64,000 bases of DNA from Candidatus Babeliales bacterium (GTDB taxonomy: Bacteria > Babelota > Babeliae > Babelales > JANWKD01), in the NCBI GenBank assembly GCA_963722075.1, contig CAVRJM010000001.1, forward strand, positions 1,210,864-1,274,863, written 5' to 3'. Within the stretch, counting starts at the first letter, position 1. Every line of letters starts with the position of its first letter. The notes beneath the pieces were generated by a model. That model made no database searches, was not told where the DNA came from, and saw only the letters and a list, made by a program, of their open reading frames with translations. Below, piece after piece: positions 3,138 through 51,313 of the stretch. The translations under genes and the position numbers were made by a program.

Positions 3138-3575
3138 TTATTTTTTCAGTGCAAGCCAAGTGAAAAGAGCAATTAAGCTAGCGCCGCCGACTCCCAACCC
3201 GGTAGCAATTTGCACTTTTTTATTTTTATAAAATGGCAGTATCTGTCCGCTGTTGCCAGGAGCAACATTATTCGTGTGTGATGTAGGATTTTTTAAATAT
3301 TCTTGAGACTCGATTGATGGTGCTTCTTGATCTGCTGGTGGCGTTAACAGTTGTTGCAAGGTAGAATGATCAGCTGAATTGCTCATGGGAAATTGTGGCT
3401 GATTAATTTTTGGCGAAGGAAGTACCTCAGGTGCTGGTATATTAGTATCTACTTTGTGCCATTCAAGTGAGTCTGTTAATTTCTCGAGTTCTTTTTGTTT
3501 ATCTTGCTCCATTGCAAACATAGACAATGGTAAAAATAGAGCAAAACCGGTTAAAAATTTAGTAAGCATGTTCAT
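3138..3575 (-). CDS. secreted Pro/Gln-rich protein with C-terminal membrane anchor, hypothetical
   Basis: The ORF track gives 3138..3653. The internal ATG at 3575 (MNMLTKFLTGFALFLPLSMFA) has AAGGAG upstream and begins a signal peptide. The C-terminus GLGVGGASLIALFTWLALKK looks transmembrane. Confidence 0.55.
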   Translation of the reverse strand: MNMLTKFLTGFALFLPLSMFAMEQDKQKELEKLTDSLEWHKVDTNIPAPEVLPSPKINQPQFPMSNSADHSTLQQLLTPPADQEAPSIESQEYLKNPTSHTNNVAPGNSGQILPFYKNKKVQIATGLGVGGASLIALFTWLALKK

Positions 3576-3739
3576 AATTAATAACTCCTTTATCAAATAA
3601 TTATGATATTTTTTTCCAAGTATATGCACACAAAGCAATAAAAGGCAAGACAAGATATTATTGCTGGCTTGGATAGAGAAATGTTATACTGATTAAAAAG
3701 GGCTATTTATTGCTATTTTTATTATAAAATGGAGAGGTT

Positions 3740-4408
3740 ATGAAGTCTATTAAAATTATGTTTTTTCTTAGTTCGGTTTTTCTAATAATATCATTGCAAT
3801 CTAATGGTTTAAAAACTCCCGATGATTTCTTGTTTTTTGCCATTAAACAGTTTGGGCCAAGTTGGGATTCTTCTCCGGCTGTTAGAGAGCAATTAGAAAA
3901 AGGTGCCAACCCTAATGCTCAAAAGAAGGGCAAAACGGCGATTATGCAGGTAATTGAAGAAAAGTATGCCGGGAAAAACCGTATTAAACCATTGCTATTA
4001 TTATTAGAACGTACAAATAATGTTGACTTTGTTGCTGATAATGGGATGACTGCGCTTACCTTTGCGGCATCATTAGGTGACGATGATATGGTTAATGTAT
4101 TATTAGAAAATGGTGCTAATCGTTATAAGAAAGATGCCTACGGCATGGATTATCTCGATTATATTGTGGAAAATGAGATCTATGAAAATAAACCAAATGA
4201 GCTAAAAGCAATTAGAATAGAACGAGAAAAAAATCTTTTAAATAAAGAATTATCAGAGTTTGAGGTTATTCGTTTGCGCCATGAAATTGAAGAAGAAGAA
4301 TATGAGCGGCGCGAACAAAAAGAATGGGAAAAAGTTAGAGAGCTTGATAAAATTATACGAAAAGAATTAAGAGAACTTGAAGAAGGGTGGGAGTTGGTAG
4401 AGGAATAA
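3740..4408 (+). CDS. secreted ankyrin-repeat protein with Glu-rich coiled-coil tail (paralog 1)
   Basis: It has a signal-like N-terminus. ANK motifs include NGMTALTFAASLGDDDMVNVLLENGAN. The tail ends ...ELEEGWELVEE. The stop overlaps the photolyase ATG (TAATG). Confidence 0.8.
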   Translation: MKSIKIMFFLSSVFLIISLQSNGLKTPDDFLFFAIKQFGPSWDSSPAVREQLEKGANPNAQKKGKTAIMQVIEEKYAGKNRIKPLLLLLERTNNVDFVADNGMTALTFAASLGDDDMVNVLLENGANRYKKDAYGMDYLDYIVENEIYENKPNELKAIRIEREKNLLNKELSEFEVIRLRHEIEEEEYERREQKEWEKVRELDKIIRKELRELEEGWELVEE

Positions 4409-5766
4409 TGTATAAAAAAAGCTTATTTATCTTTCGTCGAGATTTGCGCTTAGAAGATAATATTGGCTTAAATGAAGCATTACGAAATTCAGCCCATGTT
4501 ATTCCTTGTTTCATTTTTGATCTACGCCAATTATCACCGGATAATGAATTCCGTTCATTACGTGCTATTACCTTTATGATAGAATCTTTGCTTGATTTAC
4601 AAAAACAACTTAAACACGTCAATGGAAAGCTTTATTTTTTTTCGGGTATTGCTGAAGAAGTAGTAAAGAAAATAATAAAACAAGAGTCAATAGAAGCGGT
4701 ATATTTTAATCGTGATTATACGCCATTCAGTATAAAGCGTGACGAAGCAATAAAAAAAGCGTGTATTCAAAATAATGTTGATTTTTTTATATGTGACGAT
4801 GCGCTTTTAAATCCACCTGAATCAATAAAAACGCAAAAAAATGAACCGTTTTCAAAATTTACTCCGTATTATAAAAAAGCACTACTGTATTCCGTTGATA
4901 AACCTGCTTTTTTAGCAGGTGCTCATTTCTATCACAAACCCATAAACGATACGCTTTCAGGTAATATAGACCCATTAATAGAAATTAAAAATGAGGTCAT
5001 TAAGGGCGGCTCTAAAGAAGCAGCAAAGATTTTACGATCATTAAAGAAATTTAAAAATTATGCGCATGAACATGATTTTCCTTCAATTGCTACCACCCAT
5101 CTTTCAGCGCATAATAAATTTGGCACCGTTTCAATTAGGACTGTTTATCATGCAATAAAAAAGCAACTAGGAGCAGGGCATCCGCTGCTACGTCAATTAT
5201 ATTGGCGCGACTTTTTTACCTATGTTGCCTATCATTCTCCCTTTGTTTTTGGTGAGTCATTTTATAAAAAATATGAAAAGTTGTGGTGGAGTGATAATAA
5301 AAAATTATTTACATTGTGGTGCGAAGGCAAAACAGGATTCCCTATTGTTGATGCAGGAATGAGAGAATTAAATCAAACAGGGTTTATGCATAATAGGGTG
5401 CGATTGCTAGTTGCATCATTCTTAGTAAAGGATTTGCATATAAACTGGCTCTGGGGAGAACGCTATTTTGCCCAACATTTAATTGATTATGATCCAGCCG
5501 TAAATAATGGTAATTGGCAATGGTGTGCTTCTACTGGGTGTGATGCGCAGCCCTATTTTAGAATATTTAATCCCTGGTTACAGCAAAAAAAATTTGATGC
5601 TGAATGTGTATATATTAAAAAATGGATACCTGAACTCAAAGATGTAGAGAACGCTACTATTCATACCTGGTATGCGCAAAAGCAATCGATCAACAATTAT
5701 CCATTACCAATTGTAGATCATGCTTATGAGAGCAAAATAGCTAAAAAACTCTTTAAAAACCTCTAA
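4408..5766 (+). CDS. phrB: deoxyribodipyrimidine photolyase (class I CPD photolyase/cryptochrome family)
   Basis: LFIFRRDLRLEDN at the N-terminus; the FAD-binding region reads WRDFF..., GFPIVDAGMRELNQTGFMHNRVRLLVASFLVKDL, DYDPAVNNGNWQW. The start is placed at the internal ATG 4408 rather than the track's GTG 4387. Confidence 0.9.
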   Translation: MYKKSLFIFRRDLRLEDNIGLNEALRNSAHVIPCFIFDLRQLSPDNEFRSLRAITFMIESLLDLQKQLKHVNGKLYFFSGIAEEVVKKIIKQESIEAVYFNRDYTPFSIKRDEAIKKACIQNNVDFFICDDALLNPPESIKTQKNEPFSKFTPYYKKALLYSVDKPAFLAGAHFYHKPINDTLSGNIDPLIEIKNEVIKGGSKEAAKILRSLKKFKNYAHEHDFPSIATTHLSAHNKFGTVSIRTVYHAIKKQLGAGHPLLRQLYWRDFFTYVAYHSPFVFGESFYKKYEKLWWSDNKKLFTLWCEGKTGFPIVDAGMRELNQTGFMHNRVRLLVASFLVKDLHINWLWGERYFAQHLIDYDPAVNNGNWQWCASTGCDAQPYFRIFNPWLQQKKFDAECVYIKKWIPELKDVENATIHTWYAQKQSINNYPLPIVDHAYESKIAKKLFKNL

Positions 5767-5830
5767 TATTGCAATTTGAAACTATAAAATAGTATAATTA
5801 TAGTAGCTATTTATCTGAAAAGGAGTTATT

Positions 5831-6448
5831 ATGAATAAAAAATCACCTATTATAACCTTTCTTTTATCAACTGTTTTATTTTCTTTAGAAGCAAATCATA
5901 ATATTGAAAAATATATTCCAAAGATTGCTGAGCAAATTAACGCTCTAGAGTTTTATCACCCAAAAGTTCAAGGATGGACGCCTTTTGAGCAGATAAGTTT
6001 ATTTTTACACCAAGCAGGTTTTAAACAAGAAAAACCAAACCCAAATATTCAAATTGATGGAAAAACTCTTTTGATGTATTTCATGGAAAAAGTAACAGGA
6101 AATCGTATCGAAGCGCTTAAACGTTTATTAAAAGTTTTAAATAATTATATGATGGATATAAATGTAATTGCTGATAATGGGATGACAGCACTTACATTTG
6201 CTGCCTCAAGAAATGATAATGAAATGGTAGAAGGATTAATCACGTATGGCAAAGCTGATGTTAATCAGCCTGATGCATTTGGCAAAACATATAGGGATTA
6301 TTTAATAGAAAATGAAATAAAAAGAAAAGAAAAAGTGGAAGAGGAATTGCGAAGGGAATTTGAGTTTATTCGTACCAAAGAAGAATTGGAAGAAGAGCGG
6401 GAAAAAGAATTAGAAAAAGAACTTGAAGAATGGGAAATAATTGGTTAA
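5831..6448 (+). CDS. secreted ankyrin-repeat protein with Glu-rich tail (paralog 2)
   Basis: It has a signal-like N-terminus. NGMTALTFAASRNDNEMVEGLITYGKADVN is nearly the same ANK as in 3740..4408. The tail ends ...ELEEWEIIG. Confidence 0.8.
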   Translation: MNKKSPIITFLLSTVLFSLEANHNIEKYIPKIAEQINALEFYHPKVQGWTPFEQISLFLHQAGFKQEKPNPNIQIDGKTLLMYFMEKVTGNRIEALKRLLKVLNNYMMDINVIADNGMTALTFAASRNDNEMVEGLITYGKADVNQPDAFGKTYRDYLIENEIKRKEKVEEELRREFEFIRTKEELEEEREKELEKELEEWEIIG

Positions 6449-6473
6449 CCAATTACTATAAATGGAGTGTTGT

Positions 6474-7031
6474 ATGAAAATTAATAAATTATTTTTATTG
6501 GTATCGATGAGTTTTATTGCAAATTTATTTTGTTCATATTCTTTACGCCAAGATATTCCAAACAAAGCATTATTTGATGCTATTGAAAATGCGAATGTTA
6601 ACGCGGTGAGAGTATTGTTAGCAGAAAAAAGAATTAATCCAAATATACCATATCAAGGGAAATCTGCGCTTATTAAAGCAATTACGTTATCAGATCCTAA
6701 TGCAAAAGCAATTGTGGAATTGCTCCTAAAGCATGATGCTAATCCCGATTACATTGATGATTCGGGAATGACTCCTTTAGTAGCTGCTAAATATGTTAAT
6801 AAGCCGGATATTGTTTTGCTGCTATTGCAATATGGGGCTCGGGTAACCACTGATAAAACATTACGTGAAGAGAAAAAGCCTAAAATTACCTGTCCGTATG
6901 AAAAAGGCCTTAAGAAATTAGAAAAAGAATTTTATATGGTGCCTGAAGAGCCTAAAAAAGAAGAAGAGGAATGGACGGTAATCGAAAGCCCTAAATCTGC
7001 ATGGGAGACATTAAAGCGCTGGCTCTATTAA
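6474..7031 (+). CDS. secreted ankyrin-repeat protein with acidic tail (paralog 3)
   Basis: ANK motifs include AVRVLLAEKRINPN, ELLLKHDANPD and SGMTPLVAAKYVNKPDIVLLLLQYGA. The tail reads KKEEEEWTVIESPKSAWETL. The start is moved to ATG 6474 (GGAG upstream; MKINKLFLLVSMSF looks like a signal). Confidence 0.8.
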   Translation: MKINKLFLLVSMSFIANLFCSYSLRQDIPNKALFDAIENANVNAVRVLLAEKRINPNIPYQGKSALIKAITLSDPNAKAIVELLLKHDANPDYIDDSGMTPLVAAKYVNKPDIVLLLLQYGARVTTDKTLREEKKPKITCPYEKGLKKLEKEFYMVPEEPKKEEEEWTVIESPKSAWETLKRWLY

Positions 7032-7034
7032 AAA

Positions 7035-7063
7035 TTGACAAATAAGATAAAAAATTATATGAT
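7035..7063 (+). promoter_or_regulatory. putative sigma70-like promoter of ssrA (TTGACA-N17-TATGAT)
   Basis: The hexamers were read from the sequence about 30 nt upstream of the tmRNA 5' end. AT-rich background makes chance matches likely. Confidence 0.3.
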
Positions 7064-7092
7064 TATTGTTACTAAGAATCTTTGAAATATTT

Positions 7093-7517
7093 GGGGGCGT
7101 ACTGGCTTCGACGTGGTATCGATAGGTTAAAGAGCATGCCAAGTTTTGACTGAAAACTTGTAAAAGAATTGGTCGAAATATAAATGCAAACACTGTTAAA
7201 AGTGATGTTCCTGCAGCTTTATTTGGTTCAATCCAAAATTCAGTATTTGGTGCTCAAGCAGCAGCTTGTGCTTAATTACTGAATAGTTCAGGACACTTGT
7301 TAGCATAACGTGCTTATCAGCGGTGCTAACACGTATTACAAGAGATAAGACTTTCTCGCGTAGATTACATAATTTTGTAGCGAGAAAAAACACTAAATTA
7401 TCCTTACTTTCTATCTGTGTTTTCGAGGTGAAGTAACGGTATATTCGAAAACTGAGCATGGAGTACTTTAAGCTTGACATATTGCGGACATGGGTTCGAT
7501 TCCCATCGCCTCCACCA
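7093..7517 (+). ncRNA. ssrA: tmRNA (SsrA), one-piece
   Basis: The 5' end GGGGGCGTACTGGCTTCGACG pairs with the 3' end ...GGTTCGATTCCCATCGCCTCCACCA (acceptor stem, T-arm and CCA). An internal frame from GCA 7186 to TAA 7273-7275 encodes ANTVKSDVPAALFGSIQNSVFGAQAAACA. The resume codon is uncertain. Confidence 0.85.
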
Positions 7518-7564
7518 GTCTTCGCCCTTCGGGCTACGCCTGGCACGGCCAGTTTCTTTAGCGG

Positions 7565-8671
7565 CTAATAATTATGATCCAATACATCAATATATGGCTT
7601 AAACTTAAATAAACGGCCTCTTTTTTGTTGCGTTTCTTCTACTAAGATCCCATTTGCCATAAAATCAGTAATAATTTTATGAGCCGTATTATACGAAGTA
7701 TTGAGCTGCTTACTGAGTTCTTGAATATTAATAATCGGTATCCTAAAAAAAATTGATAATGCTTTTAACCGTGTACGCATGGTTGCGGTTGACTGTTTTT
7801 CTTGCGTAATTTGATCCCGCAGTGAGTGTTCTAATGAAGCGATATCTTTTGCGCGTCGGTGAGCATCAATGCTTGTTTCTTTGATAGCGGTTAAATAAAA
7901 AAGCACCCATCCTTCAAAATCGCCTTTGGTACGTACTTGATCAAGTCGTTGATAATACTCAAGTTGATTCTTTTTAAAATAATAAGAAAGATACAAAATG
8001 GGTTCATCAAGTAATTTGTTATCAATGAGCATAAGTGCGATTAATAATCTACCAATACGGCCATTGCCATCTAAAAAAGGGTGTATGGTTTCAAATTGAA
8101 CATGGGCAAGACCTGCTTTAATAAGCGGCATAGGTTCTTCGCTGTTAATATACTTTTCTAAATCGGTCATTAAATCTGGAATTAATTGTGGTGGTGGTGG
8201 AATTAGAGCGCCCACGCGTACTGGTTGTTTTCGATAATGACCTGGATTGGCTTTTTCGCCTTCTCCTTTCTCCATCAATGTTTTATGCGCAGCAAGAATT
8301 ACGCGCGAAGAAATAGGCAATCCCTCTTTTTTGACCATATCAACTGCTTTATAAATAGCGGTACAGTAGTTCATCACTAGTTGTGTATCCTTACCTGCCT
8401 TGCCGCCGCTTAATGGTTGAGTAAAAACATCTAAAAGCGTAGTGTGAATTCCTTCAATTGAAGAGGATAAAAGCGCTTCTTTAATGACATATGATTTGAT
8501 AAATCGCTTTGGATCGGGTAAACTATTAGTCATCTCGTTTAGTTTGCCCAATTGAAGCATCGCTTCTCCGTATGCATCTATGATTTTTTCATTTAGTAAT
8601 AATGGCGGTTCGTGGGGCGGTAATGAATCAGGTATAAAATAGCTATCTTCGTAATGGCCCGTTATACGCAT
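7565..8671 (-). CDS. Fic-family protein (AMPylase-type) with N-terminal inhibitory helix and C-terminal wHTH
   Basis: The Fic active-site motif HPFLDGNGRIGR is present. An inhibitory-type motif S-x-x-x-E-G (SSSIEGI) lies upstream of it. The C-terminus IQELSKQLNTSYNTAHKIITDFMANGIL is HTH-like. Confidence 0.9.
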   Translation of the reverse strand: MRITGHYEDSYFIPDSLPPHEPPLLLNEKIIDAYGEAMLQLGKLNEMTNSLPDPKRFIKSYVIKEALLSSSIEGIHTTLLDVFTQPLSGGKAGKDTQLVMNYCTAIYKAVDMVKKEGLPISSRVILAAHKTLMEKGEGEKANPGHYRKQPVRVGALIPPPPQLIPDLMTDLEKYINSEEPMPLIKAGLAHVQFETIHPFLDGNGRIGRLLIALMLIDNKLLDEPILYLSYYFKKNQLEYYQRLDQVRTKGDFEGWVLFYLTAIKETSIDAHRRAKDIASLEHSLRDQITQEKQSTATMRTRLKALSIFFRIPIINIQELSKQLNTSYNTAHKIITDFMANGILVEETQQKRGRLFKFKPYIDVLDHNY

Positions 8672-8879
8672 TTTTATCCCTTTTTACGGCATTTTGTTTC
8701 AATAAATAGTTCTTAATTGAAATAATCATTCAAATTGCTCTCTTTTATTTAATAAAATAATTATACAATGAAATAAAGAATACAAGAAGGTTGATTTTAT
8801 GCGACCAGAATTTCGGATAAATAATTGACTTTTAGAATTGTATAATTTACAATTAGAATATAAAAATATATTGAAATTA

Positions 8880-8990
8880 GGGGGCGTACAGCTTCGACGC
8901 GCTCATGAAAACGGGAAGGGGATGCCGAGTTTCGACTGATTTCATTTTCAATATCACGAGCTTGTAAAAAGAAAAACTCTTGATTCAAAC
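8880..8990 (+). pseudogene. orphan 5' fragment of a second tmRNA gene
   Basis: GGGGGCGTACAGCTTCGACG...GGATGCCGAGTTTCGACTGA...CTTGTAAAAAGAA parallels ssrA positions 7093-7170 (GGGGGCGTACTGGCTTCGACG...GCATGCCAAGTTTTGACTGA...CTTGTAAAAGAA). No tag ORF or 3' tRNA-like half follows. Confidence 0.5.
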
Positions 8991-9038
8991 AAGCTGTTTT
9001 AGGTATACTTAAATTAGGTATGATAAAGGGAGGGTACC

Positions 9039-9425
9039 ATGAGATCACATTTTAATTTTACTTTTCTTTTTTTGCTTTTCATAAATTTCTTTTTTAATAG
9101 CTACTCATTTGATATTGGTGCTGATGATGAAGGGTTTGAAGATATTTTTAGTGAAGATATGGGTGGCAGAGTAAATTTTTCTGAGGATATTATTAATCCT
9201 GAAGTTGGTCCAGACCAAAAAAAGGAAGAAGCGCCACGTCCTATTGAATATCCTGAAGTTCGTTATAAAGTTATTAATCCGGAACAGGAAATTAGTGAGC
9301 CAGCAGTTGATACGTCTATAAAAATTCCTTTAGAAGATGTTCCTGTAGAAGATATTTCTTTAGAAAATGATGAAAGTGATGGAATTGTAACAATTCCTGA
9401 GCTTGAAATTATTGAAGATCAATAA
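9039..9425 (+). CDS. acidic secreted hypothetical protein
   Basis: 128 aa with GGGAGGG upstream. The N-terminus is hydrophobic (FTFLFLLFINFFFNSYSF) and the body is rich in E, D and P. Confidence 0.5.
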   Translation: MRSHFNFTFLFLLFINFFFNSYSFDIGADDEGFEDIFSEDMGGRVNFSEDIINPEVGPDQKKEEAPRPIEYPEVRYKVINPEQEISEPAVDTSIKIPLEDVPVEDISLENDESDGIVTIPELEIIEDQ

Positions 9426-9448
9426 TTGCATAGAGATAAAAATGAAAA

Positions 9449-9484
9449 GGGCCGATATCAGTAATGATATCGGCCCTTTTTTTT
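9449..9484 (+). terminator. rho-independent terminator
   Basis: An 11-bp perfect stem (GGGCCGATATC / GATATCGGCCC) with a 6-nt loop is followed by a T8 run. It lies immediately after ORF 9039..9425. Confidence 0.7.
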
Positions 9485-9491
9485 ATAATGA

Positions 9492-10617
9492 CAGGACTTA
9501 CGCATAAGTAGCACCAATATAACGATCTAATCGAGTGAACATACGATTTAGAGAAGAAGGATTTTTATTCTTAAAGGCTGTGATAGCGGCTTCTGGATTC
9601 TTATAAGAATCCAATTGAGCGATTGAATAAGCTAAGAAGACAGCGCAGATATGATCAAATTGCGTAACTATTTTTCTGGAAAAGCATTCTTGAAGGCCTA
9701 AGCTTTGCTTAGAAGTTCTGATTAATTTTTCTATTCCCCAACGATTTTTATAATTAGTAGCATGTTGCTTTGGAGTGGCTTTATACGTTGCAGCCTGGTA
9801 AACAATAGTTTCATTACCATGCTTATCAATGCGCCTTACGGCAGTAATGTAAAGGGAAAGACCATGCCAAACAATGGTTATAGTGCGAGCCATCTGCCGG
9901 CCCTTTGGGCGTATTTCTTTAATTTCATGCAACTTTCTTTTTTTCCCTTTATATTCAACTACACGGTTACTATGCATACGCACTTCGGTTGCAATATTAT
10001 TTTCTATAGCCCATTTTAAATATTCCACCGAAGCAAATGCACCATCCAAAACTGCAATAATTCTTGCATTGGGAAAAAGTTTTTGAGCTTCGATGATAAA
10101 TAGTTGTACCGTGATTATTAATGCTTGCTTGGGATTCTGATAAAACTCTTTTCCAAATGTAAAAACAGTATTGATTGGCACAGTAAATTTACCATCGGAA
10201 ATGGCACTAATAAGCAATTTATATGCGTTAATGGATCTACCAATTTTTGTGTCAAAAAACCAACACGTACCATCCATCATTTGGGAGTAAATTTTCTTAA
10301 TAGTTGTTTCATCTATGATTACTAATAGCTCTTTTTTATGAGCAAAAATTTGTTGGGCAATTCTTTTTGATTGTTCAAGGCTTTCACGTCCTGATCGCAA
10401 CATGCGATTAACAGTGTCACCACTTTTTTTGATGAGCTTACCCATATTTTCAAAACTTCTTTTTCCAATATTGGTAAGGATTGTAAGTAATGGATAAGTT
10501 GCTATATTATTAACAATGATCATTTAGGTTCTCCTTCGATTTAGTTGTTTTAGGAGAGCCTATTATTTTTTTAAAATACGTCTAGATCATATCTTTAAGT
10601 TATTTGCGCAAGTCCTG
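9492..10617 (-). mobile_element. insertion sequence (IS4 superfamily), copy IS-a
   Basis: Terminal inverted repeats are CAGGACTTACGCA (left) and TGCGCAAGTCCTG (right). They are flanked by the direct repeat TAATGA (9486-9491 and 10618-10623). A single transposase ORF lies inside. Confidence 0.75.
9498..10523 (-). CDS. DDE transposase, IS4 superfamily
   Basis: 341 aa. The signature Y-x2-R-x3-E-x6-K is present as YKNRWGIEKLIRTSK. Confidence 0.85.
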   Translation of the reverse strand: MIIVNNIATYPLLTILTNIGKRSFENMGKLIKKSGDTVNRMLRSGRESLEQSKRIAQQIFAHKKELLVIIDETTIKKIYSQMMDGTCWFFDTKIGRSINAYKLLISAISDGKFTVPINTVFTFGKEFYQNPKQALIITVQLFIIEAQKLFPNARIIAVLDGAFASVEYLKWAIENNIATEVRMHSNRVVEYKGKKRKLHEIKEIRPKGRQMARTITIVWHGLSLYITAVRRIDKHGNETIVYQAATYKATPKQHATNYKNRWGIEKLIRTSKQSLGLQECFSRKIVTQFDHICAVFLAYSIAQLDSYKNPEAAITAFKNKNPSSLNRMFTRLDRYIGATYA

Positions 10618-10688
10618 TAATGAAGCTGCTAGCGCGGATAAAAAACAGGCGAGAGATATAATTATTTCAATTAATTTGACTCATTTTA

Positions 10689-11921
10689 CTTAAGTTTGGA
10701 CAACTTCATTGTTAATAACTCCTAAAGGCATCAAACGCAATATACTTAGCCGAAATATTGTCGCGCAGGTAAAATTGAACTTGGCATATTGCTTTCCTAA
10801 GCTTGTGACGAGTATATGAATAAATCATATTAAGCAGAACATGCAATCCACTGAATTTGAGCCGCTCGCGCTTAGAAAGCACCTGATTACGTACTATTTC
10901 TCCAATCAAAATCAATAAGTTGTAAGCTATTAAGCCGATTAGAAGCAATTTATGAAGATTATTCACCGTTTTGTTCATAAGTTTTGTAAAGCCCAATTTA
11001 TCTTTTATGTCTTTGAAACTTTCTTCAATTTTCATACGTTTTTTATAGTATTTTAAACCTTCGCATGGTTCACAATTTGTAATTACATATAAAGCTTCAT
11101 GCATATTGGATTGCCATTCAGCAGCTATATTTACTTTGACATTTCCCTTATAATAAACTTCTTTCCAATTCTTCTTTGAACCTCGTGTAATAGAAATATC
11201 GATTTTACGGTACTTTTTATCAGTTATATTCACTGTATGCCTTCCAGAATTAACTTTTAAGCGTATTGCATAATGAATTTGACGTGTGGTAAAGAATTTA
11301 ATCATCTCTTCATTAGATAATTCTCGATCAGCAATAATTATCTTATTGCAAAGCAAGTCAAATAATGGCTGTAAGGCATTTTGTAGAAACTTCCATTTGC
11401 CAATATTAGTCTGATCGATTGTTGAAGAGGATATTATATCTGCGAATATCACTTTTGATCGTCCTTTGAATGGTACACTTAATGCCAAAATATTGTACCC
11501 ATGCGTTTTTCCATCTTTTAAATAACCAACATAATTAGTTTTATTAGCGCCTTTTCGAACCATCTCAGTAAAATCCAATAATATCATTTTGCTTGTTGAA
11601 TCAATAAATGTTAAAAGAGCTTCTGACAGCTGCGATACATCTAGCTTATTAAGCATCCTCGTAATCTTTTTATAATTCGTTTCATAATTGCCGGGCAACG
11701 CTGCAGAAATACTGGAAATTCTAAGTCTTCTTGTTTGCTGAAAGCTCCAAATCATTGATCCGATCAATTCTGCGAATTCTATTTTGAATATTTTTAGTGA
11801 ATTAATCATTTTTATGATACAATTTTTAGCAATCATGATTTCTCCTGATTTTGGCGTTTTTTCTTGTTTTTTAAAAAATACACCAGATCAGGAGTTTCTT
11901 CTATTTATGTCCGAACTTCAG
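10689..11921 (-). mobile_element. insertion sequence (IS4 superfamily, different family from IS-a), copy IS-b
   Basis: Imperfect 14-bp terminal inverted repeats are CTTAAGTTTGGACA and TGTCCGAACTTCAG. They are flanked by the direct repeat ATTTTA (10683-10688 and 11922-11927). Confidence 0.7.
10712..11836 (-). CDS. DDE transposase, IS4 superfamily
   Basis: 374 aa. The Y-x2-R-x3-E-x6-K signature is present as YKKRMKIEESFKDIK. Confidence 0.85.
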   Translation of the reverse strand: MIAKNCIIKMINSLKIFKIEFAELIGSMIWSFQQTRRLRISSISAALPGNYETNYKKITRMLNKLDVSQLSEALLTFIDSTSKMILLDFTEMVRKGANKTNYVGYLKDGKTHGYNILALSVPFKGRSKVIFADIISSSTIDQTNIGKWKFLQNALQPLFDLLCNKIIIADRELSNEEMIKFFTTRQIHYAIRLKVNSGRHTVNITDKKYRKIDISITRGSKKNWKEVYYKGNVKVNIAAEWQSNMHEALYVITNCEPCEGLKYYKKRMKIEESFKDIKDKLGFTKLMNKTVNNLHKLLLIGLIAYNLLILIGEIVRNQVLSKRERLKFSGLHVLLNMIYSYTRHKLRKAICQVQFYLRDNISAKYIAFDAFRSY

Positions 11922-12023: not shown

Positions 12024-15000
12024 ATGAAGAATAGAAGGCTTAAAGTCTTTATTGCCAGAATGGTGATGGTAGGTTTGCTTGTGCAACATGCTGTGCCGTT
12101 GATGGCTGCCTATGAACAAGATTCAGTAAGCGAACAACCAGCTGAAAACTTACCGATTAAGAATAAAAGAGTAAAATCAGAAGACTCTATAGATCCTCAT
12201 GCGCTCATACCAACTGCCGATACGAGTGAACAAATAGTAGTTATTGATGATGAGCAGTTAGAACATTTTATTGCATCTATAGTAAAAACCGTTGCTAGAA
12301 ATGGAACACAGGAAACATTGTCAGAAGAAATGATGATTTTTTGTGAACAATTACTAACCGGTAAAAAAGAATTTTCAGTTGGATTCTTGTGCAAAGTTGT
12401 TCCTCAATTATTAACGCTCGCAAATAAAAGCATGGAAGAAGAACGTGCCATGCGACCGAACGTTGGGTTTCAAGATGGGTCAATAGTTGGTCCATTACTT
12501 TCTTGCAACTTTGACCAAGTTCTTGCCTTGCTTCATCAAATTTTTAATTTTTTAATGCAATGTTGTGCTACCATAGAATTTGATTTAAATGGTGTGTTTA
12601 CCTTATTAAATACTGATTTTAATGGAACCTTTACCTTTCTTAATGAAATAGAAAATACCTTAACTACGTGCTGTGCTACCATAGAAAATGATTTAAATGG
12701 CGTATTTACCTTATTGAATACAGATTTTAATGGAACTTTTACTTTTCTTAATGAAATAGAGAACACCATAACTACATGCTGTGCAATTGTAGAAAATGAC
12801 TTGAATGGGGTATTTACGTTATTGAATACAGATTTTAATGGAACCTTTACCTTTCTTGATGAAATAGAAAATACCTTAACTACGTGTTGTGCAATTGTAG
12901 AAAATGATTTGAATGGAGTATTTACGGCACTTGCAGCTTTAACAGTAACGGTTACGGTTGATTTTACGGATGTATTCACCACGCTTGATGATATTAATAA
13001 TACACTAACTACCTGTTGCGCAATCGTAGAAAATGATTTAAATGGCGTATTTACCGTACTCAATACTGATTTTAATGGGGTTTTTACCGCATTAGCTGAT
13101 TTATCAGTAACGGTCACGGTTGATTTTACGGATGTATTTACCACACTTGATGAAATTAATAATACATTAACTACTTGCTGTGCGATCGTAGAAAATGATT
13201 TAAATGGTGTCTTTACCGCCCTCAATGATATAAGTACATCGTTTACTGTTGATATTACAAATATATTTACCACACTTGAGGATATTAATAATACATTAAC
13301 TACGTGTTGCGCGATTGTAGAGAATGATTTGAATGGCGTATTTACGGTATTAAATACCGACTTTAATGGTACCTTTACTATGTTAACAGATATATTTAAT
13401 ACCCTGACTACTGGTTGTGCATCAATTACACCTTGTAATCCTGTCTTTATTACTCAGGCAGATGTGGGAACGACTGGTTATACCATTACACAATCTGGAG
13501 TGTACTTTCTAAAAGAAAATATTGTATTTAGTCCAGCAACAATATCTGATGCCATTACTATAGAAGCTGATGATGTGCAATTAAATTTACAATGTTTTAT
13601 TTTATCACAAGGTAATGCGCAACCATCTGTGACTGGTATTGTTGTTGTGCCTGGGGTTAATAGCACTACTATCGAAAATGGTACCATCTCGGGATTTACT
13701 AATAATGGTATTAGTGTTGATCTGAGTGTATCGGATTTTACTCTCTTAAATACTGTTATACGTCGAAATGGCTCTGGTCTATTTTTAGATGGAGTAGTAG
13801 GATCCCCTGTTTCAAATTTTATTGTTAGAAATGTGGAATTTAATTCCAATCTTATTGGGTTGGTTATGACAAATGCTAATAATGGGATTATCCAAGGTTC
13901 AATTTTGTCACGTAACAAAACTGGTATAATGATGACTGATTGCTCTGGCAATGTTATTTCACAATGTGATATTAATCAAACGGTACAAACTGATCAGGAA
14001 AGCGCGTATGGTATAATTGCTCAAGGGGGATCTAATAATCGATTTGAAAGATGTATAATCGATGGCACTTCAACAATGGCAACCACATCAGCATTTGAGG
14101 CAACTGGTTTGTATATTGGGAGTGATGAGCAAGGCGATCTTATTGTGTGGAATCAAATAAGCAATTCAACGACATCTTCAAATGCTTTTGCCTATGGTAT
14201 CCATATGGATTACACCTTTATTGGGACTAGTACAGAAGGCATGCCGAGCATTGTAAGTACTAATACTATTATGAAGCTTGCTTGGTCACCAAGCGATAAA
14301 TACTTAGGAGTCAATTTTGGCTTTTCGGAAAAGATATACGAATTTGACCTTGCTAATGATCAATTTGTACAAGTAGCAAGCGTTACAACACCAAGTGCTA
14401 CTTCTGGATTAAGCTGGTCACCTGATGGATCATTTATAGCTTTTAGCGATCAATCGGGTGCGATAAATATCTATTCATTTGCCGGTACTACACTTAATTT
14501 TGTAACAAGTTTTGATGTTTCACCCAACATCCCACAAGCTGTCGCATGGTCACCTGATGGGCGATTTATAGCGGTAGGGACATCGGCAGGATCTTCTGGT
14601 GAAGAGATTATATTGGAATTTAATGGATCCTCATTAAGTCAAGTAGCAAGTTTTAGTTCGACCTTTGCACCATTATCAATAGCATGGGCTCCTGAGGGAG
14701 ATTTTCTTGCAGTTGGAACGACCGAAAATGTGATAGTGCTTAAATTTGTATCGGGTATTACTTTAACGCAGGTCGCTATTGCTACTCCTTTTGCACCAGT
14801 ACCTGCAGTTGATTGGGCAGTCGATGGAAGATCGATTGTTACTGCTCAAAATACAGGAACGCAAAAAGTGGTTGTATATTCATTTTCAGGAACATCGCTT
14901 ACTATCCAAGCCACGGTTAATAATTCTATAATCATTAATGATGTAAAATGGAGCCCTGACGGCAACTATGTAGTTATGGTTAGTGATACAGGGGGAGTAA

Positions 15001-15419
15001 ATGATACGCATATATTTAAATATACTGGAGTGTCCTTAGTAGATGTAGCTGATATAAATCATGGTGCTAACATAAATAGTGCTTCATGGTCACATGGCGG
15101 TGCCTACATAGCCATTGGGGGACAACCACCATCTAATGAAGCAGAACAAACGCTCAATCCATTTTTATTCCCCGTAAATATTATTCGTAATAATGAAATT
15201 TATAATATTCATGGACCAGCGCTTGCAGCAGGAATTCCAGGATATTCTACTGGCAGAGCGTTAAGTGCTTCATCTAATACCAGTTTAATTATACAAAATA
15301 CTGCATTTAATAATGATGTTAATTATGTTTTTGTTACTAATACATATCAACAATTTTTAGCAAATACACAAAGTATGTTCCCTAACTTATTATCCAACAT
15401 GTTCTTTCCACCGCTATAA
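12024..15419 (+). CDS. secreted repeat-stalk / parallel beta-helix / 7-blade beta-propeller protein (paralog 1)
   Basis: 1131 aa with a signal/anchor (FIARMVMVGLLVQHAVPLMAA). It has 7 vicinal-Cys repeats. Beta-helix-type repeats include NGTISGF..NGISV, VIRRNGSGLFL and ILSRNKTGIMM. Seven AWSPDGxxIA-type blades follow. The C-terminus is shared with paralog 2 (LIIQNTAFNNDVNYVFVTNT). Confidence 0.85.
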   Translation: MKNRRLKVFIARMVMVGLLVQHAVPLMAAYEQDSVSEQPAENLPIKNKRVKSEDSIDPHALIPTADTSEQIVVIDDEQLEHFIASIVKTVARNGTQETLSEEMMIFCEQLLTGKKEFSVGFLCKVVPQLLTLANKSMEEERAMRPNVGFQDGSIVGPLLSCNFDQVLALLHQIFNFLMQCCATIEFDLNGVFTLLNTDFNGTFTFLNEIENTLTTCCATIENDLNGVFTLLNTDFNGTFTFLNEIENTITTCCAIVENDLNGVFTLLNTDFNGTFTFLDEIENTLTTCCAIVENDLNGVFTALAALTVTVTVDFTDVFTTLDDINNTLTTCCAIVENDLNGVFTVLNTDFNGVFTALADLSVTVTVDFTDVFTTLDEINNTLTTCCAIVENDLNGVFTALNDISTSFTVDITNIFTTLEDINNTLTTCCAIVENDLNGVFTVLNTDFNGTFTMLTDIFNTLTTGCASITPCNPVFITQADVGTTGYTITQSGVYFLKENIVFSPATISDAITIEADDVQLNLQCFILSQGNAQPSVTGIVVVPGVNSTTIENGTISGFTNNGISVDLSVSDFTLLNTVIRRNGSGLFLDGVVGSPVSNFIVRNVEFNSNLIGLVMTNANNGIIQGSILSRNKTGIMMTDCSGNVISQCDINQTVQTDQESAYGIIAQGGSNNRFERCIIDGTSTMATTSAFEATGLYIGSDEQGDLIVWNQISNSTTSSNAFAYGIHMDYTFIGTSTEGMPSIVSTNTIMKLAWSPSDKYLGVNFGFSEKIYEFDLANDQFVQVASVTTPSATSGLSWSPDGSFIAFSDQSGAINIYSFAGTTLNFVTSFDVSPNIPQAVAWSPDGRFIAVGTSAGSSGEEIILEFNGSSLSQVASFSSTFAPLSIAWAPEGDFLAVGTTENVIVLKFVSGITLTQVAIATPFAPVPAVDWAVDGRSIVTAQNTGTQKVVVYSFSGTSLTIQATVNNSIIINDVKWSPDGNYVVMVSDTGGVNDTHIFKYTGVSLVDVADINHGANINSASWSHGGAYIAIGGQPPSNEAEQTLNPFLFPVNIIRNNEIYNIHGPALAAGIPGYSTGRALSASSNTSLIIQNTAFNNDVNYVFVTNTYQQFLANTQSMFPNLLSNMFFPPL
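12561..13412 (+). repeat. in-frame tandem repeat array: 7 units of 36/43/54 aa starting with Cys-Cys
   Basis: Units read CCA(T/I)(I/V)ExDLNGVFTxLNTDFNGTFTFLxEIENTLTT. Counted lengths are 36,36,36,43,54,43,36 aa (284 aa total), built from roughly 11-aa sub-repeats. Confidence 0.85.
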
Positions 15420-15438
15420 TATATGAGGTAGTTAGCAA

Positions 15439-15475
15439 GGGTCTCATCTATTAATGCATGAGACCCTTTTTATTT
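15439..15475 (+). terminator. rho-independent terminator
   Basis: The stem GGGTCTCAT/ATGAGACCC is followed by a T-rich tract directly after the stop of paralog 1. Confidence 0.65.
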
Positions 15476-15493
15476 TTATAAAAATTTAATGTA

Positions 15494-15523
15494 TTGACAT
15501 TTAAAATAAATTAATTTTAATCT
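15494..15523 (+). promoter_or_regulatory. putative promoter (TTGACA-N18-TAATCT) of fibre paralog 2
   Basis: This is a duplicate of the block at 11931. The downstream RBS AAAGGAGAGAGGG is also conserved. Confidence 0.3.
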
Positions 15524-15581
15524 ATCTTAATCCAACACAAAAAAGAGAGTATATTTTTTAAAAAAAAGGAGAGAGGGTTAA

Positions 15582-18500
15582 ATGAAGAATAGAAAGCTTA
15601 AAATCTTTATTGCCAGAATGGTAATGGTAGGTTTGCTTGTGCAACATGCTGTGCCGTTGATGGCTGCCTATGAACAAGATTCAGTAAGCGAACAACCAGC
15701 TGAAATAACCTTATCAGTTCAAGGTAAAAGAGTAAAATCAGAAGATTCTATAAATTCTAATGTACTCATACCAACTGCCGAGACGAGTGAACAAATAGTA
15801 GTTATTGATGATGAGCAGTTAGAACATTTTATTGCATCTATAGTAAAAACCGTTGCTAGAAATGGAACACAGGAAACATTGTCAGAAGAAATGATGATTT
15901 TTTGTGAACAATTACTAACCGGTAAAAAAGAATTTTCAGTTGGATTCTTGTGCAAAGTTGTTCCTCAATTATTAACGCTCGCAAATAAAAGCATGGAAGA
16001 AGAGCGTGCCATGCGACCGAACGTTGGGTTTCAAGATGGGTCAATAGTAGGCCCATTACTTTCTTGCAACTTTGACCAAGTTCTTGCCTTGCTTCATCAA
16101 ATTTTTAATTTTTTAATGCAATGTTGTGCTACCATAGAATTTGATTTAAATGGTGTGTTTACCTTATTAAATACTGATTTTAATGGAACTTTTACTTTTC
16201 TTAATGAAATAGAAAATACCTTAACTACATGCTGTGCAATTGTAGAAAATGACTTGAATGGGGTATTTACGTTATTGAATACAGATTTTAACGGAACCTT
16301 TACCTTTCTTGATGAAATAGAAAATACCTTAACTACGTGTTGTGCAATTGTAGAAAATGATTTGAATGGAGTATTTACGGCACTTGCAGCTTTAACAGTA
16401 ACGGTTACGGTTGATTTTACGGATGTATTCACCACGCTTGATGATATTAATAATACACTAACTACCTGTTGCGCAATCGTAGAAAATGATTTAAATGGCG
16501 TATTTACCGTACTCAATACTGATTTTAATGGGGTTTTTACCGCATTAGCTGATTTATCAGTAACGGTCACGGTTGATTTTACGGATGTATTTACCACACT
16601 TGATGAAATTAATAATACATTAACTACTTGTTGCGCGATTGTAGAGAATGATTTAAATGGTGTCTTTACCGCCCTCAAGGATATAGGTATAACGTTTACT
16701 GTTGATATAACAAATATATTTACCACACTTGAAGATATTAATAATACGTTAACTACGTGTTGTGCCAATATTGAATTCGATTTTAATGGCATATTTACCA
16801 CAGTTACCGATATAATTGCATCAGTATCGACTGATTTTACGCTAGCCCTTACAACGCTAATAGAAATTAATAATACCTTAACGGAATGCTGCGCAAATAT
16901 TACCAATGAATTTAATGGTACCTTTACCGTGCTCAATGATATTGAAAATACCCTTACAACATGCTGTGCAACCGTAGAAACTGATTTGAACGGGGTATTT
17001 ACGTTATTGAATACAGATTTTAACGGGACCTTTACCTTTCTTAATGAAATAGAGAATACCTTAACTACGTGCTGTGCAATTGTAGAAACTGATTTGAATG
17101 GGGTATTTACGCTATTAAATACCGATTTCAATGGTACCTTTACGGTACTTGCAAGTTTAATGCCTGCCTGCCCTAACACAGTAATTACACAATCGGCGGT
17201 AAATGCGAGTGGTGGCACCTATACCATTTCTAATCCTGGTAATTATTCTTTATCTTCAGATATTACCTCAACAGCAGCAACCATTATTGTTATTGATGCT
17301 GATCAAGTAACGTTAGATCTGTGTGGACGTTCAATTATTGGGGCCGGCGTAGATAGTGGTGATCAAATTGGAATTACCGTAGAAGCGGGCCTTTCAGATA
17401 TTGCAATCACGAATGGTGATATAACTAATATGAGTATGGACGGTATTTTTGTAAATAGCGGCGTTTCCGATTTAAGCATAAGCAATATTGCGGTAAATAA
17501 TACCGGAAGATCAGGTATTAATCTTGAAGGAAACAGTGAATCATTAATTACCGAAGTAGTTATTAATAACTGCACAATTTCTTTAACGGCAACGGGGGCT
17601 ACAGGAATTGCAGGGCTAGTTTTAAATAATTGTGATACGGTAGCGGTGCAAGGTGGAAATTTTGATCGTAATGGATCACTAACTAATGTTGCAGGAATAT
17701 TAGTTAATGCATGTAATGATTGTGTAATCGATGCAGCCACTATGAATCTTAATACCAGTACCGGGTTATTATTAGTAGATTCTCAAAATTCAGTAGTCAA
17801 TAATGTGGTAATATCAAGAAACACGGGAGCAGGTATCGATCTTTCAGGAAGCTCATTTAATACATTTAATAATTGCGCTATAACGCGTACTGTTGCAACT
17901 GCTAATAACAGTGCTTATGGTATTAGAGCATTAGGCGGTGGTAGCAATAGATTTGAAAATTGTATAATTGATGGTACCTCGACTGCCGCAACAAGTTCAG
18001 ATTTTGAAGCAACAGGTATCTTGATTGGTAGTGACGAACAAGCGGATATTATTATAAATAATCAGGTCTCTAATTCTACAGCTTCATCATCAGGATTACC
18101 ATTTGGCATTCATATGGATTATACCTTTACTGCATTAAGTAATTCAAGCCTTCCATCAATTACTATTGGCACTACTATTGATAAAGTAGCATGGTCTCCT
18201 AATGATAAATATTTGGCAGTAAGTTTTGGAACTTTGTCTACAACCATTGCAGTTTATGCATTTGATAGAGATATCTTAGATTTAGTACAAGTCGCTACAG
18301 TTGCTCTTACTAACGCATGTCAAGATTTAGCGTGGTCCCCTGATGGCACTTATTTAGCAACGGTTGAGCCAAATGGTGTTAATGGTTTATTGCGAGTGTT
18401 CTTATTTAATGGTGTAAGTCTAAATCAAATAGCAACAGCAGCAGTAGGAACCGATGGTGGGGTTCCTGAATCGGTAAGTTGGAATGCTAATGGTAGATTT

Positions 18501-19367
18501 ATAGCGGTTGTTGGAAATGCGACTTCATTAACGCGTGTAAATGCAGACCCTACCGTTTATGTTTTTGAGTTTACTGGTTCTTTACTTAATCAAGTTGCAA
18601 CTACTGGTGTAGCAGGTACCGTAAATGCTGTTGCATGGGGCCCGCAAAATAATTATCTTGCGGTGGGTGCAATAGGGCTTTTAGATGTATTTAAATTTAC
18701 TGGTGGAACCACCTTAACGCTTGCTGCATCATTGTCCCTTGGTACTGATTCAGCCAATTCTGTTGATTGGGCGGTTGATGGTCGAACCTTGGTAATAAGT
18801 AATACTACTGGAATCTCAGTTGTTGAATTTACTGGAGTTGCGTTAACGCCAATAACAAGCGTATCAACTGGTGTTCAAGTGAATGATGCCCACTGGAGTT
18901 CTGATGGGCAATATGTGGTTATTGGGCAAAATGAAATAGCGGGAGGCGATGTAAAAGCGTATCTATATAATGGTACTTCTTTAACGCTTGAAAGTTCATA
19001 TACGCATGGAGCTAATGTCAGTTCAGTTGCTTGGTCTCGTGGTGGTGAATTTATTGCTATCGGTGGAAATGTATCTGGTGGTAAAACGGAAGAAACACTT
19101 TTTGGGTTAGTGTTTCCTGCTAATACCATTATAAGAAATAATGAAGTTTCAGGAGTGAGCGGGCCAGCGCTTGCAAGTGGAACTCCTGGGTTTTCAACGG
19201 GTCGCGGGATTAGTGCATCTTCAAATTCGAATTTAATTATACAAAATACGGCATTTAATAATGATGTTAATTACGTATTTGTGACGAATACCTTTTCCCA
19301 ATTTATTGCAAATACAGCAAGTCAATTCCCAAGTAATTTAGCTAATTTATCATTCCCTCCATTGTAA
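15582..19367 (+). CDS. secreted repeat-stalk / parallel beta-helix / 7-blade beta-propeller protein (paralog 2)
   Basis: 1261 aa. After residue ~66 the N-terminus up to the repeat array is identical to paralog 1. It has 9 Cys-Cys repeats, a longer beta-helix, seven AWSPDG-like blades, and a conserved C-terminus. Confidence 0.85.
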   Translation: MKNRKLKIFIARMVMVGLLVQHAVPLMAAYEQDSVSEQPAEITLSVQGKRVKSEDSINSNVLIPTAETSEQIVVIDDEQLEHFIASIVKTVARNGTQETLSEEMMIFCEQLLTGKKEFSVGFLCKVVPQLLTLANKSMEEERAMRPNVGFQDGSIVGPLLSCNFDQVLALLHQIFNFLMQCCATIEFDLNGVFTLLNTDFNGTFTFLNEIENTLTTCCAIVENDLNGVFTLLNTDFNGTFTFLDEIENTLTTCCAIVENDLNGVFTALAALTVTVTVDFTDVFTTLDDINNTLTTCCAIVENDLNGVFTVLNTDFNGVFTALADLSVTVTVDFTDVFTTLDEINNTLTTCCAIVENDLNGVFTALKDIGITFTVDITNIFTTLEDINNTLTTCCANIEFDFNGIFTTVTDIIASVSTDFTLALTTLIEINNTLTECCANITNEFNGTFTVLNDIENTLTTCCATVETDLNGVFTLLNTDFNGTFTFLNEIENTLTTCCAIVETDLNGVFTLLNTDFNGTFTVLASLMPACPNTVITQSAVNASGGTYTISNPGNYSLSSDITSTAATIIVIDADQVTLDLCGRSIIGAGVDSGDQIGITVEAGLSDIAITNGDITNMSMDGIFVNSGVSDLSISNIAVNNTGRSGINLEGNSESLITEVVINNCTISLTATGATGIAGLVLNNCDTVAVQGGNFDRNGSLTNVAGILVNACNDCVIDAATMNLNTSTGLLLVDSQNSVVNNVVISRNTGAGIDLSGSSFNTFNNCAITRTVATANNSAYGIRALGGGSNRFENCIIDGTSTAATSSDFEATGILIGSDEQADIIINNQVSNSTASSSGLPFGIHMDYTFTALSNSSLPSITIGTTIDKVAWSPNDKYLAVSFGTLSTTIAVYAFDRDILDLVQVATVALTNACQDLAWSPDGTYLATVEPNGVNGLLRVFLFNGVSLNQIATAAVGTDGGVPESVSWNANGRFIAVVGNATSLTRVNADPTVYVFEFTGSLLNQVATTGVAGTVNAVAWGPQNNYLAVGAIGLLDVFKFTGGTTLTLAASLSLGTDSANSVDWAVDGRTLVISNTTGISVVEFTGVALTPITSVSTGVQVNDAHWSSDGQYVVIGQNEIAGGDVKAYLYNGTSLTLESSYTHGANVSSVAWSRGGEFIAIGGNVSGGKTEETLFGLVFPANTIIRNNEVSGVSGPALASGTPGFSTGRGISASSNSNLIIQNTAFNNDVNYVFVTNTFSQFIANTASQFPSNLANLSFPPL
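16123..17150 (+). repeat. in-frame tandem repeat array: 9 Cys-Cys units (25-54 aa)
   Basis: The unit family is the same as at 12561-13412. Some blocks are nearly identical at DNA level to paralog 1. Units 6-9 have no counterpart there. Confidence 0.85.
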
Positions 19368-50976: not shown

Positions 50977-51313
50977 TTAATCACCAATTTATTAACGATA
51001 GTAATTATTTTTTTTCGAATTATTGGATCATCAATGTAACGGCTTCTATTATTTTGCGAAGGCCGAATATTTATCATAGAATCAAATTCTATCCAATCTT
51101 CAGAGGTTTTGAGGGGATAAATATTTATCCCCCAGAGATTTTCTTGTTGAGAGCCCATTTCTAATAGGAGTTCTTCTTGATCTGCATGAAGTCTGCATCA
51201 ACAACCATGATTTCTTTTTCAATATCAACAACAGCCTTTACCAAGTTGTTAAACATTTTGGATGCCATTGGCTTTAATTCTTCTAAGGAAATAGGTTCCT
51301 TGACAATATGCAT
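50973..51313 (-). pseudogene. DUF5674-like gene with a 1-nt frameshift
   Basis: The N-part (read by eye) is MHIVKEPISLEELKPMASKMFNNLVKAVVDIEKEIMVVDAD. The alternate frame continues LHADQEELLLEMGSQQENLWGINIYP...FDSMINIRPSQNNRSRYIDDP, which is the track ORF 50973..51158. The shift lies near 51185 and is not in a homopolymer. Confidence 0.6.

Follow-up and report, generated by a model that had tools for sequence, protein, structure and literature searches.

How does the 5′ part of a tmRNA gene come to lie, in direct orientation, a short distance downstream of a complete tmRNA gene? This question is raised by the window analyzed here, a 64,000-nucleotide stretch of a 1.42-Mb contig of a Candidatus Babeliales bacterium. 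The intact gene of the window, ssrA (7093..7517, + strand), is recognized by ARAGORN and, over its full length, by the Rfam tmRNA model RF00023 with 149.5 bits, and it encodes the tag ANTVKSDVPAALFGSIQNSVFGAQAAACA. A second tmRNA-like sequence, GGGGGCGTACAGCTTCGACG, begins at 8880, which is 1362 nt past the ssrA 3′ end. The sole gene between the two is a Fic-family gene of 368 aa (7565..8671, − strand; Pfam Fic_N 2.3e-18, Fic 1.3e-21). The original prediction, according to which an orphan 5′ fragment of a second tmRNA gene is located about 1.36 kb downstream of ssrA with a Fic gene in between, was correct with respect to the nature of the fragment (Smith-Waterman z 9.6-23; nhmmer E 3.3e-15) as well as its position. 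Based on comparisons with related loci, we argue that the fragment is very probably a truncated pseudogene. It would derive from tm2, the downstream one of two tmRNA genes that form an old tandem in this branch of Babeliales (Dependentiae).

The fragment comprises a solid core followed by a short colinear piece. The core (8880..8939, + strand) corresponds to tmRNA positions 1-61 and includes the 5′ strand of the acceptor, the UUCGACG motif, the 5′ strand of P2 and the start of PK1. Aligned to the first 61 nt of the window's ssrA, it reaches a Smith-Waterman score of 40, while 500 dinucleotide-preserving shuffles gave 17.3 ± 2.4 and a maximum of 31 (z 9.6). The similarity is, thus, clearly better than that of shuffled controls, and over all comparisons the fragment was homologous to part of a tmRNA gene with z values of 9.6-23. 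Beyond the core, the MAFFT alignment reveals an 18-nt insertion relative to all intact tmRNAs (8941..8958, + strand) and then a terminal piece of 14 nt, GAGCTTGTAAAAAG (8959..8972, + strand), corresponding to tmRNA positions 62-75 in PK1. This piece is colinear, is invariably the top local match beyond 8940 and falls within the match of the tm2 profile described below (8821-8971); taken alone, it is not significant (z 0.1-2.5). From 8973 onward, no tmRNA homology was found, i.e., the homology stops at 8972 or tmRNA position ~75. Accordingly, the ~110 nt of similarity proposed originally hold for 60 solid nucleotides and the 14-nt colinear piece, and this length was slightly generous. A Logan contig from an independent assembly (run ERR10755947) is identical across the entire overlap, which extends from the ssrA 3′ end through the Fic gene and the fragment into the open reading frame starting at 9039 (ORF 9039). 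Therefore, this arrangement is not an assembly artefact.

The stump lacks the resume codon, the tag frame, PK2-4, the 3′ strand of P2, the T-arm and the 3′ strand of the acceptor. A tRNA-like domain requires both acceptor strands, G3:U70, the T-arm and CCA; of these elements, the fragment has the 5′ strand GGGGGCG alone. Moreover, no tag frame is present within 8880-9038. ARAGORN and the Rfam covariance scans detected a single complete tmRNA, at 7093-7517 (+ strand), and no second complete gene. At E ≤ 10, RF00023, for which the gathering threshold is 47 bits, matched neither 8600-9500 nor 8880-8985, the latter scanned alone to permit a 3′-truncated match. Similarly, the permuted-tmRNA model RF04321 had no match at gathering score in the window and none at E ≤ 1 on 7380-9060. 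The search for the 3′ half of tm2, i.e., the tag frame, PK2-4, T-arm and CGCCUCCACCA, covered the 64 kb of the 1.42-Mb contig, and in these 64 kb it has no counterpart; blastn-short with the whole ssrA returned only chance 10- to 13-mers and no second ssrA 3′ piece. With ARAGORN, Rfam and blastn-short in agreement over the 64 kb, the notion that the tag-coding region, pseudoknots 2-4 and the 3′ tRNA-like half are missing is well founded. A 20-nt match between 8937-8956 and 51208-51227 involves an unrelated stretch and was taken as chance. The remaining part of the gene has also changed. Among the 45 columns in the first 61 positions that are invariant in five intact genes (the window's ssrA and four genes of relatives), five are altered in the fragment in the MAFFT alignment, one of them by a 1-nt deletion in the D-loop-like segment. 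Together with the 18-nt insertion, these alterations point to relaxed constraint on the fragment. Because the 3′ acceptor strand, T-arm, tag frame and PK2-4 are missing, the stump is expected to be incapable of alanylation and trans-translation. Ribosome rescue in this organism should, therefore, rest on the product of the intact gene alone.

Two relatives carry two complete tmRNA genes in tandem. A scan of a genome collection (one genome per species) with the 5′ motif GGGGGCGTACN{2,3}CTTCGACG matched at least 119 loci in many phyla and was too unspecific; among the matches listed, L112 was the sole informative locus, and the window's own genome was absent. L112 is from a MAG of a Candidatus Babeliales bacterium (905,774-bp contig; G+C content of the 8-kb locus, 34.8%). 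The second locus, L121, is a metagenome contig that was found with a clade-specific pattern on a metagenome collection. In both, the two genes lie on one strand with tm1 upstream. In L112, tm1 (5383-5822, − strand) encodes the tag ANAVKGDSSLAHLGYVSANAFGTWSAAAAA and tm2 (3232-3599, − strand) the tag ANFGLAAPALALS, and the spacer is 1.78 kb; in L121, tm1 (1331-1758, − strand) encodes the tag AKNAVDHVNGRINAFNGSFLGTNASCVAAA and tm2 (565-929, − strand) the tag ANFGLAAA, and the spacer is about 400 nt. Thus, the tag is ~30 aa for tm1 and 8-13 aa for tm2. The four genes have RF00023 scores of 148-160 bits, and the RNAalifold consensus of the five intact genes contains 84 pairs, of which 13 have compensatory changes, some of these tm2-specific (long P2 helix). 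Based on these scores and compensatory changes, both paralogs look like working genes in L112 and L121. At their 3′ ends, the five intact genes share 34 nt without a single difference.

The relatives are distant from the organism studied here: photolyase homologs have at most 64% amino acid identity (63% for that of L112) and the tm1 genes ~72% DNA identity. In the remaining Dependentiae-like loci that were fetched, three of which cover several kb downstream, there is a single tmRNA gene with a short tag, and therefore the tandem pair seems to be limited to a subclade. Of the two tag types, the short one is probably older. Since the intact pair is known from two independent relatives, both distant, the timing of the duplication and the ancestral state of the locus rest on few points. 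In the literature searched, we found no description of tandem tmRNA pairs or tmRNA duplication in Dependentiae, which is not proof of novelty. Two further features of L121 deserve mention. Its two ~80-nt 3′ trailers (480-564 and 1245-1330) differ by 2 mismatches, although the gene bodies are ~79% identical, which points to gene conversion or to a trailer under strong constraint. In addition, the junction between the tm1 3′ part and the tm2 5′ part (812-1394) scores 73.5 bits with RF04321, which is above threshold. A permuted arrangement is, thus, latent in a tandem pair, which can be mis-called as a permuted gene.

Several observations indicate that the fragment corresponds to tm2 and the intact ssrA to tm1. 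First, the Smith-Waterman score of 8880-8939 is 58-60 with tm2 of the relatives (z 20-23), 36-46 with their tm1 and 40 with the window's own ssrA, for which z was 12.9 in the comparison that gave 20-23 for tm2. Over the first 61 nt, the fragment is 80-82% identical to the relatives' tm2, 75-79% to their tm1 and 75% to its own neighbor. Of five paralog-diagnostic columns, three have the tm2 state in the fragment and none the tm1 state. Second, with nhmmer profiles of the relatives' tmRNA genes that include 70 nt upstream, the fragment matches the tm2 profile over 8821-8971 with 50 bits (E 3.3e-15) and the tm1 profile with 31 bits. The window's ssrA has the reverse preference, with 249 bits for tm1 and 215 bits for tm2, and its first 61 nt are 85-87% identical to the relatives' tm1. 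Third, the upstream region provides the clearest signal for the paralogy of the fragment. Within 6900-9600, the best promoter-like site is that of the intact ssrA (TTGACA-17-TATGAT, 7035..7063, + strand, 11 of 12 consensus positions), and the second best is a sigma-70-type site upstream of the fragment (TTGACT-17-TACAAT, 8825..8853, + strand, 10 of 12 positions). Each precedes the respective GGGGG by 26-29 nt, with the ssrA site 29 nt ahead of the mature 5′ end, and the two sites are in register in the alignment. The promoter signature TTGACT...TACAATTAGRATA is common only to the fragment and tm2 of L112 and L121, as is the combination of TTGACT, a 17-nt spacer and TACAATTAG(A/G)ATA, and the −10 regions of the tm1 genes differ.

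Gene order is consistent with this assignment. A photolyase gene is present upstream of tm1 in L121 and upstream of ssrA in the window (4387-5766), and the fragment has the position and orientation expected of tm2. Five other loci reached via photolyase homologs have no tmRNA nearby, and therefore this synteny is limited to the window and L121. Altogether, the long tag, the upstream photolyase gene as in L121 and the profile preference identify the intact ssrA as the ortholog of tm1, while the alignment scores, diagnostic columns, tm2 profile and promoter signature identify the fragment as the ortholog of tm2. As expected for a pseudogene, intact orthologs are found at the corresponding place in relatives, i.e., tm2 of L112 and L121. 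Judged from these comparisons, the duplication that gave rise to tm1 and tm2 would be older than the split of the three lineages. Around the photolyase gene, the window contains three ankyrin-repeat genes (3740-7031), two of which (5831-7031) are located between photolyase and ssrA; the stretch from photolyase to tm1 is about 1.5 kb in L121. The ankyrin genes, a G+C content of 35% and a contig of 1.42 Mb fit a host-associated Dependentiae genome.

We suggest that the ancestral layout was the one seen in L112 and L121, where a promoter and tm1 (tag of about 30 aa) are followed, after a spacer, by a promoter and tm2 (tag of 8-13 aa) in the same orientation. In the organism studied here, tm1 is intact, the Fic gene occupies the spacer, and tm2 is missing beyond about position 75. 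The surviving parts of tm2 are the promoter (8825-8853), the first 61 nt (8880-8939) and, beyond the 18-nt insertion, the last 14 nt (8959-8972). This loss may have happened by deletion or replacement, at a locus that appears rearranged in every relative. The spacer content differs in each genome, with the Fic gene in the window, two genes in L112 (one for a DnaJ-domain protein, the other for an unknown protein) and none in L121. Fic homologs with 60-67% identity occur in many Dependentiae, and in three of their loci that were inspected, no tmRNA was found nearby. A decayed tandem ssrA duplication, one of the two alternatives offered originally, was therefore essentially right; the refinement is that the decayed copy is an old paralog, tm2, and that both copies are intact in L112 and L121.

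Downstream of the fragment, ORF 9039 (9039..9425, + strand) encodes a protein of 128 aa with a hydrophobic N-terminus followed by an acidic region. Its ATG is preceded by a strong Shine-Dalgarno sequence, AAGGGAGGG; such a motif is present at 57% of the long ORFs in the window vs. 11% in the background. A word-indexed search among 5.8e9 proteins returned its own protein alone, and HMMER on 1.84e9 representatives returned a single weak homolog, P0242 (E 3e-4), to which BLASTP aligned 29 residues at 76% identity. In its own locus, L131, P0242 is preceded by tRNA-Lys and tRNA-Glu, and no tmRNA sequence was found near it or at the spot corresponding to the fragment. The L131 genes downstream of P0242 match the window at 12-31 kb, which indicates that ORF 9039 belongs to a conserved downstream syntenic block and not to the tmRNA. 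ORF 9039 has a promoter-like site, TTGATT-18-TATACT (8980..9009, + strand), and L131 has the same site upstream of P0242 at the corresponding place, in an alignment that is colinear and, alone, not significant. These findings speak against the other original alternative, in which the promoter and leader of ssrA were captured and now drive ORF 9039: this promoter is native to the lost tm2, ORF 9039 has a promoter-like site and Shine-Dalgarno sequence of its own, and its L131 homolog has the TTGATT-18-TATACT site without any tmRNA sequence.

On the other side of the fragment, a 47-nt block (8751..8797, + strand) resembles the region upstream of P0242 (L131 3440-3480), with a Smith-Waterman score of 44 compared to 24.7 ± 3.9 for shuffles (z 5.0; 1 of 500 shuffles reached 44). 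Between this block and TTGATT-18-TATACT, the window is ~146 nt longer than L131, an excess close to the combined length of the tm2 promoter and the stump; together, the excess and the block are suggestive only. Insertion of a tm2 piece at this spot would agree with the lack of tmRNA sequence at the corresponding spot in L131 and is a less parsimonious history. Downstream of ORF 9039, a bidirectional terminator-like hairpin has a 17-pair stem followed by a T run (9444..9481, both strands); weak Rfam matches to Thr_leader and to several enterobacterial sRNAs (9422-9483) represent merely this hairpin. Two DDE transposase genes (9498-10523 and 10712-11836, both − strand; both Pfam DDE_Tnp_1) interrupt the block between ORF 9039 and the genes for large repeat proteins and are absent from the syntenic stretch of L131. 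Self-BLAST revealed no clear inverted repeats bounding them.

Could selection have kept the stump, with its promoter and leader driving or regulating ORF 9039 or yielding a functional small RNA? The promoter remnant looks competent, matching the consensus at 10 of 12 positions, as do the tm2 promoters of the relatives, and between 8853 and 9444 no terminator-like site was found. For these two reasons, an unprocessed transcript that starts at the stump promoter and runs into ORF 9039 is plausible, as a by-product rather than a designed arrangement. ORF 9039, in turn, looks real given its strong Shine-Dalgarno sequence, distant homolog and conserved downstream block. Relative to tm2 of the relatives, the promoter hexamers show no change and the 60-nt core retains 80-82% identity, while the adjoining intergenic DNA is unalignable; the core is, thus, conserved better than its surroundings, and some retained constraint on the stump is possible. 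However, with ~11% change at constrained sites, the probability of finding no change in 12 promoter positions is about 0.25, so that the preservation of the promoter is weak evidence and within neutral expectation. Moreover, five constrained positions are mutated, the 18-nt insertion interrupts the remnant, the fold of 8860-9050 is unremarkable (z −1.8), and ORF 9039 has its own promoter-like site, the L131 counterpart of which lies in a region without tmRNA sequence. We, therefore, regard a selected role of the stump as quite unlikely. A more far-reaching scenario combines several such elements: two tmRNAs, one with a ~30-aa tag and one with the canonical short tag, would run side by side, possibly with different fates for the rescued proteins; this genome would be a natural knockout keeping the long-tag RNA; the stump would be retained as promoter and leader for the secreted-looking ORF 9039; and its truncation would be a first deletion step toward permuted genes. 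We consider this combination unlikely.

Three further explanations are far less probable than decay of tm2. If a copy of the neighboring ssrA's promoter and 5′ end had recently arisen 1.4 kb downstream and then diverged, the direct orientation, the proximity and a promoter register equal to that of the neighbor would follow; however, the fragment is nearer to tm2 of other genomes than to its own neighbor, it shows states specific to tm2 in the promoter and in P2 and none specific to tm1, and the profile scores are reciprocal, all of which makes a recent partial duplication highly improbable. Still less credible is an island or prophage that integrated into ssrA, with the Fic gene as cargo and the fragment as by-product. 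ssrA is frequently an integration site (PMC11915505), the genes around it vary among the relatives, and transposases are close by. Such an event is expected to leave a displaced 3′ direct repeat, whereas what is present here is a 5′ end preceded by a promoter of its own, and the 64 kb contain no 3′ repeat; the original view that classical island integration does not fit is upheld by these findings and by the lack of an integrase among the ORFs scanned with Pfam (3740-11836). From the geometry of integration, an element targeting the 5′ end would be expected to leave a displaced 5′ fragment upstream of the intact gene, and the supposed cargo belongs to a family whose members, like the housekeeping photolyase, occur widely in Dependentiae (60-67% identity). 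Finally, the 3′ region of the upstream gene and the 5′ piece might act together as a split or permuted two-piece tmRNA, for which the RF04321 score of the L121 junction could be cited. In the window itself, however, RF04321 has no match at either of the cutoffs given above, the stump has no tag reading frame, the 1.36-kb spacer contains a gene on the opposite strand, and the upstream gene is complete by itself, making this the least credible of all the explanations considered.

The tm2 remnant is of a known kind, i.e., a partial tmRNA gene beside a complete ssrA. As in the known cases, one terminus is missing and the piece was not made by island integration; it differs from them in that its origin is traceable, with the ortholog of the second paralog intact in relatives, and in that it has kept its own promoter. 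Like the ssrA 3′ fragments left by islands and prophages, it is a piece of ssrA that closely follows the intact gene and is separated from it by accessory genes, but those fragments repeat the attachment site, while this one is a 5′ piece with a promoter and has neither repeat nor integrase. Genomes with more than one complete tmRNA gene are also known, and L112 and L121 are further cases; here, by contrast, the two genes are in tandem on one strand with systematically different tag lengths (about 30 vs. 8-13 aa), and the pair is conserved in no fewer than two divergent lineages, while a third has kept a trace of it. As a separate observation, the uncultured gammaproteobacterial MAG CATOTD01 has a complete tmRNA gene with the tag ANEDNYALAA on each of contigs 3, 7 and 9 (L004, L026 and L068), which reflects either true multi-copy ssrA or assembly redundancy.

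Permuted two-piece tmRNAs (RF04321), found in Alphaproteobacteria, some Betaproteobacteria and Cyanobacteria, have the 3′ tRNA-like part ahead of the 5′ part, which is the order across the junction of a tandem pair. The locus studied here differs in that the upstream gene is whole and the stump has no tag frame, no covariance match and no sign of function. Keiler, Shapiro and Williams reportedly proposed in 2000 that permuted genes arose by tandem duplication followed by loss of the outer parts. The locus studied here displays one of the two losses in this duplication-and-loss model.

The stump itself changes little; its value is that it points to complete tandem tmRNA pairs with very different tag lengths in at least two related Babeliales lineages. 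Of such a pair, only the long-tag copy survives in this genome, and the canonical short-tag copy is gone. If the pair is functional, it would provide a natural system for studying the effects of tag length and sequence in trans-translation, with this genome as a one-partner comparison. For annotation, the implication is that 5′ tmRNA fragments located downstream of ssrA should not be taken for island scars.

Three minor observations concern related tmRNA sequences and the right part of the window. At L109 (2634-3023), in the MAG PBME01, which is labelled Epsilonproteobacteria and has a G+C content of 30.8%, the ends of a tmRNA are 82-86% identical to those of the window's ssrA; this tmRNA has an Rfam match of 146 bits and none with ARAGORN, and the taxonomic label may be wrong. 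In the window, 12024-19367 contains two adjacent paralogous genes of 1131 and 1261 aa, each with 108-nt repeats inside it; the sequences upstream of the two genes are 95-97% identical, and the genes match a beta-helix/WD40 protein of L131. Farther downstream, 21177-31440 contains repeat units at ~2.17-kb spacing (three copies), repeats of 234-267 nt and a recurring Thr/Ala-rich motif, and resembles a family of large proteins with repetitive sequence, either secreted or at the surface.
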